From: Escherichia coli
Lineage (GTDB): Bacteria > Pseudomonadota > Gammaproteobacteria > Enterobacterales > Enterobacteriaceae
Direction: 5' to 3' (one strand)
Assembly: GCF_003334765.1 (NCBI RefSeq)
Contig: NZ_QOWT01000005.1
DNA length: 64,000 nucleotides
This document shows, in pieces, positions 28,918 to 29,088 of this stretch; positions within the stretch are counted from its first letter, which is position 1, and each line of letters begins with the position of its first letter. A model generated the notes under the pieces. It worked only from the letters and a program-made list of their open reading frames with translations, did no database searches and was not told where the DNA came from. Position numbers and translations under genes: made by a program.

Positions 28918-29088
28918 ATGTTTATCGCCTGGTACTGGATTGTATTGATTGCTCTGGTTGTGGTGGGTTATTTCCTGCATTTGAAACGTTATTGTCGGGC
29001 GTTTCGCCAGGACAGAGACGCACTGCTTGAAGCGCGGAACAAATACTTAAACAGTACGAGAGAAGAGACAGCCGAAAAGGTAGAATAA
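28918..29088 (+). CDS. Small (56-aa) single-pass membrane protein, uncharacterized
   Basis: ATG at 28918 preceded by TAAGGGTAAAAGG; MFIAWYWIVLIALVVVGYFLHLKRYCRAFRQDRDALLEARNKYLNSTREETAEKVE, one TM helix then charged tail. The ORF track begins at an upstream TTG. Confidence 0.45.
   Translation: MFIAWYWIVLIALVVVGYFLHLKRYCRAFRQDRDALLEARNKYLNSTREETAEKVE

Follow-up and report, generated by a model that had tools for sequence, protein, structure and literature searches.

Several small membrane proteins of E. coli are known to associate with transporters, namely AcrZ with AcrB, KdpF with KdpABC, MgtS with MgtA and PitA, and CydX with CydAB. YqiD, the product of the gene analysed here, shares with AcrZ, KdpF, MgtS and CydX a length below 60 aa, a single transmembrane (TM) helix, an occurrence in the Enterobacteriaceae, and the fact that such proteins are often missed by annotation; by analogy, it would be expected to act, as they do, by binding a larger membrane protein. 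However, YqiD has no sequence similarity to any of these proteins, its gene is convergent to zupT and is not co-transcribed with a transporter, and at 36 residues its predicted cytoplasmic tail is longer than usual and better conserved than the rest of the protein, which sets it apart from the AcrZ/KdpF/MgtS/CydX group. A second class of described systems consists of the dual-function Hfq-binding RNAs SgrS/SgrT, AzuCR/AzuC, and Spot 42/SpfP. The yqiD RNA resembles them in being short and Hfq-bound, in ending at an intrinsic terminator, and in encoding a small protein, although the yqiD ORF, unlike theirs, fills more than half of the transcript. YqjD, ElaB, and YgaM are, like YqiD, small inner-membrane proteins of E. 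coli with one TM helix; nevertheless, these three carry a C-terminal anchor and are ribosome-associated, whereas the anchor of YqiD is N-terminal and there is no homology between them. The similarity of names calls for some caution, as a reviewer comment in PMC5525287 writes ‘YqiD’, probably meaning YqjD.

Identity, selection and distribution of yqiD

The yqiD coding sequence occupies positions 28918-29088 on the + strand of the window, by which we mean the whole stretch of E. coli DNA that was analysed (64,000 nucleotides). It is an intact frame of 56 codons plus a stop codon, with the ATG at 28918, and its 56-aa product is MFIAWYWIVLIALVVVGYFLHLKRYCRAFRQDRDALLEARNKYLNSTREETAEKVE. A longer TTG-started frame from 28894 also appears in the ORF listing; the start of yqiD is nevertheless the ATG at 28918 and not the TTG at 28894, because the ATG is kept in all 30 of the orthologous loci. 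The Shine-Dalgarno sequence AAGGG (28906-28910, + strand) lies 7 nt 5' of the ATG, is conserved across genera, and is kept as TAAGGGTAAAAGGATG in nearly all orthologous loci.

The translated sequence is identical (100%) to RefSeq WP_000469266.1, ‘protein YqiD’, whose K-12 record places the CDS between ribB and zupT, and it is identical to the 56-aa sequence printed in Table 1 of PMC6001520, where yqiD is given at NC_000913.3 3183381-3183551 with zupT and ribB as flanks (VanOrsdel et al., 2018). The window ORF and YqiD of E. coli K-12 (EcoCyc identifier b4756, as given in a 2026 paper) agree in sequence, flanking genes, and orientation and are the same gene. RefSeq annotates the ORF as ‘yqiD: protein YqiD’ in the listed E. 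coli genomes that carry the window allele. The earlier note, made from the letters of the sequence alone, had reported a 56-codon ORF with a plausible RBS that looked unannotated but might correspond to a recently catalogued small protein. The frame and the RBS are as it described them and the guess at a catalogued protein was right, whereas the ORF is plainly annotated. The ORF is the already catalogued yqiD; the gene has had a name, a validation, and an annotation since 2018, and its detection here does not extend the catalogue.

The product of yqiD has been observed directly. YqiD was among 36 small proteins seen by chromosomal SPA-tagging and immunoblot, and the tagged protein was detectable in rich medium in both growing and stationary cultures (VanOrsdel et al., 2018, PMC6001520). 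As the same paper notes, a tetracycline-arrested ribosome-profiling screen had also scored YqiD, as an unidentified positive, and most of the 13 ribosome-profiling-positive proteins, a group in which YqiD is included, were found at high levels. Both a tagged product and a ribosome-profiling signal, which the earlier note had named as marks of a genuine gene, are therefore on record.

The sequence comparisons point in the same direction. Across 30 complete loci from Escherichia, Citrobacter, Salmonella, Intestinirhabdus, and one Enterobacter sp., the yqiD frame was open in every case, at 56-60 codons and with the same ATG and Shine-Dalgarno sequence. Between genera, pS ranged from 0.49 to 0.81 and pN from 0.07 to 0.22, which corresponds to a dN/dS of 0.05-0.13 with synonymous sites near saturation (Nei-Gojobori, codons 1-43). 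Variable columns numbered 21, 17, and 38 of 43 at the first, second, and third codon positions, respectively, a clear excess at third positions. The gene is under strong purifying selection, which the earlier note had put forward as a further mark to be sought across the Enterobacteriaceae.

Within E. coli, yqiD is present in 5425 of 5426 genomes. Using megablast, the 491-bp region 28660-29150 matched 4433 of 5426 complete E. coli genomes, many of them at 100% identity, and over these surrounding 491 bp the divergence between the window strain and K-12 is about 0.4%. We also noticed two deeply diverged yqiD alleles within E. coli, the K-12 type and an alternative one (WP_001296421.1). In a wider search, 108 relatives were found among 5.8 billion proteins, several of them labelled DUF4051, and the named sources are all Escherichia, Citrobacter, or Salmonella. 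When one genome per GTDB species was scanned, 27 loci came to light; they belong to Escherichia spp., many Citrobacter spp., Salmonella, Intestinirhabdus, and one Enterobacter sp. Against 1.84 billion cluster representatives, a profile search gave only 25 matches at E <= 1e-3; each match examined was a short enterobacterial protein or a chimera of such a protein, except P0122 (419 aa, E 1.5e-4), a weak match that looks unrelated to YqiD. Distant homologues, at about 35-50% identity, occur in Kosakonia, Phytobacter, unclassified Enterobacter, and Atlantibacter. Since the profile matches come from such genera, the family is confined to the Enterobacteriaceae, and yqiD is a translated, selectively maintained gene of these bacteria.

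Protein architecture and gene neighbourhood

From our analysis of the 56 residues, YqiD consists of a TM helix (residues 2-20), a conserved basic juxtamembrane helix (residues 21-45), and a variable acidic tail (residues 46-56). Hydrophobicity over 19-residue windows peaks at residues 2-20 (Kyte-Doolittle mean 2.43); no charged residue lies N-terminal of the hydrophobic segment, and the net charge is +4 over residues 21-45 and -2 over residues 46-56. This is the one hydrophobic helix with a charged tail that the earlier note had recognised. An AlphaFold2 model built with the family alignment is a single continuous helix over residues 3-55 (mean pLDDT 72). Because of the positive-inside rule, we infer that YqiD is a bitopic inner-membrane protein of Nout-Cin topology, in which the N-terminus MFIAWYW would stand at the periplasmic face and the C-terminal 36 residues would be cytoplasmic.

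The most conserved part of YqiD is the juxtamembrane helix K23-R-Y-C-R-A-F-R-Q-D-R-D-A-L36 and not the TM helix. The block K23-L36 is essentially fixed in the close clade, while the last ~12 residues vary freely. In the alignment of the close clade, W5, Y6, W7, K23, R24, A28, R30, and D32-L36 are invariant; when the distant homologues are included, A28 and R30 are invariant family-wide, and I3, W5, W7, R24, R33, and A35 are kept in at least 90% of sequences. The protein carries the family signature, which is a TM helix of the form M-[FY]-I-[AS]-W-[YF]-W followed by [KR]-R-x-C-[RK]-A-[FY]-R-[QH]-[DE]-R-[DE]-A. NCBI or UniProt gives homologues at 63-80% identity the name ‘DUF4051 domain-containing protein’, and the label is found in the source databases on orthologues from Citrobacter, Salmonella, Kosakonia, and Phytobacter. 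The Pfam-A scan of YqiD itself gave no DUF4051 match, and the NCBIfam scan gave nothing above cut-off. The Pfam-A matches that did appear, to DUF2621 (8e-4), DUF6526, and DUF4381, are weak, compositional matches to a TM segment plus a charged helix and offer no functional clue; a PDB-sequence match to GapR/UPF0335 (E ~0.03) was likewise judged compositional.

The gene lies in the spacer between ribB and zupT. The ribB stop is at 28656, which leaves a gap of 261 nt before yqiD, and a ribB terminator (hairpin and T run) is predicted at 28687-28718. zupT, which encodes a ZIP-family metal permease (29146-29919, - strand), is the convergent neighbour, and its stop at 29146 is 57 nt past the yqiD stop on the opposite strand. 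The earlier note had located the ORF just past the ribB terminator, in a gap of about 260 bp and convergent with zupT, and these measurements agree with it. yqiD has an intrinsic terminator of its own (29106-29147, + strand), with a 13-bp stem and a 5-nt loop and then AUGUUGUUUUU, which overlaps the zupT stop codon; the hairpin proper spans 29106-29136 and is followed by ATGTTGTTTTT. There is no T-run after this hairpin on the minus strand, and a terminator was found for the + strand only.

A comparison of the neighbourhood across genomes showed that convergent zupT and then ygiD stand directly after yqiD in 31 of 31 close-clade loci. On the upstream side, only about half of the loci have ribB next to yqiD, and the others carry a fimbrial operon or some other insert there. 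Because of its own terminator and its variable upstream neighbour, yqiD is to be regarded as a separate unit that is not tied to ribB. Read-through from ribB is an unlikely source of yqiD expression, given the strong ribB terminator and the absence of ribB upstream in about half of the loci. The order ribB-X-zupT is also found around the distant homologues in Kosakonia, in Phytobacter, and on a JGI contig; in Kosakonia the homologue and zupT are 8 nt apart, and in Phytobacter their ORFs share 18 nt. A paralogous subfamily (P0113, P0115, and P0117; tail ...RRWRE) adjoins assT-dsbL-dsbI instead, about 3 kb from zupT, and in the lineage of this subfamily ribB and zupT are 63 nt apart with no yqiD between them. 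No second yqiD paralogue of E. coli was found in the window or in the assT-ygiC gap of an island-bearing strain. The linkage to zupT is very strong for yqiD orthologues but is not universal for the family. Convergent adjacency is in any case weak evidence of a functional link, as it may only reflect an old, undisturbed gene order.

Transcript, leader and upstream palindrome

A ~320-nt RNA from the yqiD spacer was found to bind Hfq by co-immunoprecipitation and was confirmed by Northern analysis; it was less abundant in hfq and rnc (RNase III) mutants and was called a ‘bona fide sRNA’ with a 56-aa ORF (Bilusic et al., PMC4152368). An RpoS-holoenzyme gSELEX peak has been reported in the zupT/ribB spacer (Shimada et al., 2017, PMC5493296), and the yqiD upstream region is one of 18 that were tested as GFP reporter fusions and gave consistent effects of natural variants (bioRxiv 10.1101/2025.06.10.658842, a 2025 preprint). 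We found two candidate -10 hexamers, TATGAT at 28800-28805, which is part of the promoter-like match TTAATA-18-TATGAT, and TATAAT at 28814-28819. The former is conserved everywhere, whereas the latter is not conserved outside E. coli. A start at about 28826, some 7 nt past TATAAT, and an end at about 29145 would give ~320 nt, which is the Northern size in PMC4152368.

The proximal 5' leader of yqiD (28873-28917, + strand) is AU-rich, runs into ...AAATGTTTAGTATTGTTAAATATTAAGGGTAAAAGG, and is strongly conserved: over its 45 nt, the mean pairwise identity across genera is 81%, against 55% at third codon (synonymous) positions. The leader core TGTTAAA(T/A)TTTAAGG(G/A)T (TGTTAAAT-TTAAGG) is also kept upstream of the paralogous subfamily, that is, in other genomic contexts. 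In the MFE folds, a hairpin AUAUAUCC-GAAAAA-GGAUAUGU was predicted at 28846-28867 (+ strand), which would be in the 5' UTR if the transcription start site lies upstream. An equivalent hairpin is predicted for both E. coli alleles, C. amalonaticus, C. sedlakii, Citrobacter sp. NCU1, and Intestinirhabdus; in Salmonella, E. albertii, and several further Citrobacter loci, C. braakii and C. werkmanii among them, it is weak or missing. RNAalifold proposed a weak AU/GU helix in which the leader is paired with the start codon, which we rejected as evidence of structure for want of covariation. Taken over its full length, the transcript is predicted to fold more stably than shuffled sequences (z = -4.2). 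The leader at 28873-28917 is probably a region of post-transcriptional control or of Hfq/sRNA contact, and the yqiD RNA is, in our opinion, an mRNA that is probably controlled translationally at its leader by Hfq and an sRNA.

The same data could be read to mean that the ~320-nt transcript is a dual-function RNA, which in addition to encoding YqiD acts in trans as an Hfq-dependent sRNA, so that part of the constraint falls on the RNA. The Hfq binding, the Northern signal, the lower abundance in hfq and rnc mutants, the Rho-independent terminator with its U-tail, the conserved leader, and the folding score are all in keeping with such a role. Nevertheless, no Rfam family was found on the transcript, and RNAalifold detected no covariation for the leader structure. 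Hfq binds many ordinary mRNAs that are targets of sRNAs, and binding of this kind explains the conserved leader around the yqiD RBS equally well. We therefore consider a trans-acting role unlikely, and as the coding constraint on yqiD is unambiguous, any role of the RNA would add to the function of the protein and would not replace it.

Upstream of the leader, the palindrome ATGAT-CAAA-ATCAT lies at 28801-28814 (no strand assigned), 117 nt 5' of the yqiD ATG, and overlaps both candidate -10 hexamers. In phylogenetic footprinting, its ATGATC and TCAT were invariant in 13 of 13 aligned species, and each of the 29 complete close-clade loci scanned carried ATGA-N6-TCAT here; the sites of two loci (L002 and L027) are one base off ATGAT-N4-ATCAT. 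A second palindrome, ATGAT-CATC-ATCAT (29970-29983, again without strand), lies in the divergent spacer of zupT and ygiD, 51-64 nt 5' of the zupT ATG, and ATGA-N6-TCAT recurs there in 28 of the 29 loci, the only one without it being the Intestinirhabdus locus L025. These two are the only exact matches to ATGAT-N4-ATCAT in the 64-kb window, against a chance mean of 0.06, and no shuffle reached at least two. Both palindromes are absent or degenerate in Kosakonia and Phytobacter, where CTACTTATAAAGTGGTA is found upstream of the yqiD homologue and a near-canonical Fur box adjoins the zupT RBS. The yqiD-side palindrome is likely to be an operator and/or core promoter, and the palindrome shared by the two sites may be an operator for a regulator or may partly be core-promoter sequence.

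We compared the palindrome with the consensus sequences of known binding sites, without arriving at a factor. It resembles the FNR site TTGAT-N4-ATCAA, agreeing at 8 of 10 positions, but with a symmetric outer T-to-A change in the two half-sites. The Fur box was matched at 14 of 19 positions on the zupT side and at only 11 of 19 on the yqiD side, and for Zur, NikR, CusR, ArgR, and NsrR the spacing does not fit. The YhaJ box of ygiD is elsewhere, at about 30011-30025 as judged from mutation positions (PMC5031710). The papers brought up by a literature search for the exact palindrome strings were all unrelated. In the E. coli zupT promoter, Reg-Seq detected no transcription-factor site (PMC7567609), which argues against regulation of zupT by the palindrome under the conditions tested. 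On a more specific reading, the shared ATGAT-N4-ATCAT would be a clade-specific operator of FNR/CRP-like form for a putative dimeric regulator, YqiD would be co-regulated with the broad-spectrum ZupT and serve as its accessory or regulatory subunit, and control of the leader by Hfq and an sRNA would form a second layer. Taken as a whole, we regard this scheme as a long shot.

It is also conceivable that YqiD is a type I toxin-like peptide which depolarises the membrane and whose translation is held low by a structured leader or by an antisense RNA. Its size, its single TM helix with a charged tail, and the long conserved leader resemble loci of the Hok, TisB, and DinQ type, and the level of the RNA depends on RNase III (PMC4152368). 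Moreover, zupT has no terminator in its own orientation, so read-through from zupT would be antisense to yqiD and could supply such an RNA. However, tagged YqiD is detectable in ordinary rich-medium cultures, and most of its 13-protein group is at high levels (PMC6001520), which argues against a toxin of this kind. Type I toxins are typically patchy and multi-copy, whereas yqiD is single-copy, syntenic, and nearly universal in E. coli; its strongest conservation is in the cytoplasmic helix and not in the TM segment; and Rfam has no cognate antisense sRNA family at the locus. A toxin-like function is accordingly very improbable. As for a chance ORF without a functional protein inside a non-coding sRNA or 3' UTR, which was in line with the treatment of the spacer as non-coding and of its RNA as an intergenic sRNA before 2018 (PMC4152368), this reading is refuted by the SPA-tagged product (PMC6001520), by a frame kept in all 30 loci of five genera under the dN/dS given above, and by distant homologues that keep the motif and, mostly, the position.

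Proposed function and implications

The best explanation overall, to which we assign a probability of roughly 0.55, is that yqiD is a conserved gene for a small Nout-Cin membrane protein that acts on a larger partner. By analogy with other bacterial small membrane proteins, YqiD would be a subunit, accessory or regulatory, of a larger inner-membrane protein. It would dock through its TM helix and its basic juxtamembrane helix and tune the activity or stability of that protein, with the conserved cytoplasmic helix KRYCRAFRQDRDAL as the part that would bind the partner. Hfq and an sRNA would probably control the synthesis of YqiD at the leader, and a factor recognising ATGAT-N4-ATCAT would probably do so at the promoter. 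As a general model, the modulation of a membrane protein by YqiD is tentative, and we rate it somewhat below an even chance.

ZupT is the only partner candidate that the genome suggests. It is the leading candidate because of the synteny and the shared palindrome, although a weak one, and we consider it unlikely that ZupT specifically is the partner of YqiD. For the suggestion in the earlier note that proteins of this type often modulate transporters, the support at this locus is the conserved adjacency to convergent zupT, which is broken in the paralogous subfamily. ZupT is widespread in bacteria that lack YqiD, and so YqiD cannot be an obligatory subunit of it. In the literature passages searched, we found no study of the localisation, partner, regulator, or phenotype of E. 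coli YqiD, and most mentions of ‘YqiD’ in these passages concern yqiD of B. subtilis.

Of the interpretation in the earlier note, the genuine single-pass membrane-protein gene stands and the unannotated status falls; from the raw sequence alone, a real small-protein gene had been recognised and its architecture given correctly. Four side observations may be new, although of modest importance, namely the conservation of the leader, the pair of palindromes, the two-allele state in E. coli, and the paralogous subfamily. In essence, the invariant motif, the candidate partner ZupT, the shared palindrome, and the two diverged alleles offer handles for work on small membrane proteins and metal uptake.

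Allelic divergence of yqiD in Escherichia coli

From our analysis of 5426 E. coli genomes, the small membrane protein gene yqiD exists as two deeply diverged alleles, the K-12-type allele being found in about 4430 genomes and an alternative allele in about 987, while only one genome was without any yqiD match. The alternative allele (L003/L044, NZ_AP026788.1, 9374-9544; compared with window 28918-29088) shares only about 80% identity with the K-12-type allele across the first 108 nt, and its product, WP_001296421.1, is annotated as 'hypothetical protein'. The synonymous difference between the two alleles (pS = 0.69) is as large as that seen between genera. 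In L044, the strain examined in full, a four-gene fimbrial operon separates ribB from the alternative-allele yqiD, and another compared locus, L002, appears to be a recombinant between both alleles. In one E. coli strain (L004, NZ_CP124392.1, 3001-3940), the alternative allele is split by an IS1 element, which shows that loss of yqiD is not lethal.

YqiD-like genes in other contexts and the yqiD name

A paralogous YqiD-like subfamily with the tail ...VIRRWRE (L034-L036, L045-L048) adjoins the assT-dsbL-dsbI cassette (arylsulfate sulfotransferase/DsbL-DsbI) and not zupT, the ZIP-family permease gene; the RBS-proximal leader sequence is common to this subfamily and yqiD. In one of these loci, L045, the distance between ribB and zupT is only 63 nt. 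We also found a 125-aa ORF (L032, Logan contig SRR31245077_25353, 1499-1876), seen in one contig of one sample, which joins ZupT residues 1-72 in frame to a YqiD-like C-terminus of 50 or so residues, with an inverted zupT 3' end lying downstream. This ORF is either the product of a real inversion with breakpoints within both zupT and the YqiD-like gene or an assembly chimera.

Elsewhere in the literature, 'yqiD' mostly denotes an unrelated farnesyl-diphosphate synthase gene of B. subtilis. In a reviewer comment in PMC5525287 that reads 'ElaB and YqiD', the second name probably stands for the tail-anchored protein YqjD.

Known and possible regulatory elements around ribB, yqiD and zupT

Ahead of ribB, window 27751-27899 (+) carries the expected FMN riboswitch (RF00050, 120.9 bits), and a sub-threshold Rfam match to the Salmonella sRNA family STnc240 (29 bits against a gathering score of 55; window 28655-28725) spans the ribB stop and terminator. 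The 64-kb window contains just two exact copies of the palindrome ATGAT-N4-ATCAT, against a chance mean of 0.06: one 5' of yqiD (28801-28814) and one in the divergent zupT/ygiD spacer (29970-29983). Both copies are kept in Escherichia, Citrobacter, Salmonella and an Enterobacter sp.; in Kosakonia and Phytobacter, each is absent or degenerate. The palindrome resembles an FNR site in 8 of its 10 positions and is distinct from the YhaJ box.

Directly 5' of the zupT RBS, Kosakonia, Phytobacter and related genomes carry a near-canonical Fur box, tATGATAATCATTcTCA (L033 4992-5030; L039 4982-5015; L043 4960-4995; L045 2066-2100). The equivalent place in E. coli (window about 29920-29950) has no Fur box, which fits the constitutive expression reported for E. 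coli zupT. Between the convergent yqiD and zupT (window 29089-29146, both strands) there is a single terminator, oriented for yqiD; on the zupT strand its hairpin lacks a trailing T-run. Lacking a terminator of their own here, zupT transcripts may therefore run antisense into yqiD, and such read-through could be connected with the published observation that yqiD RNA depends on RNase III.
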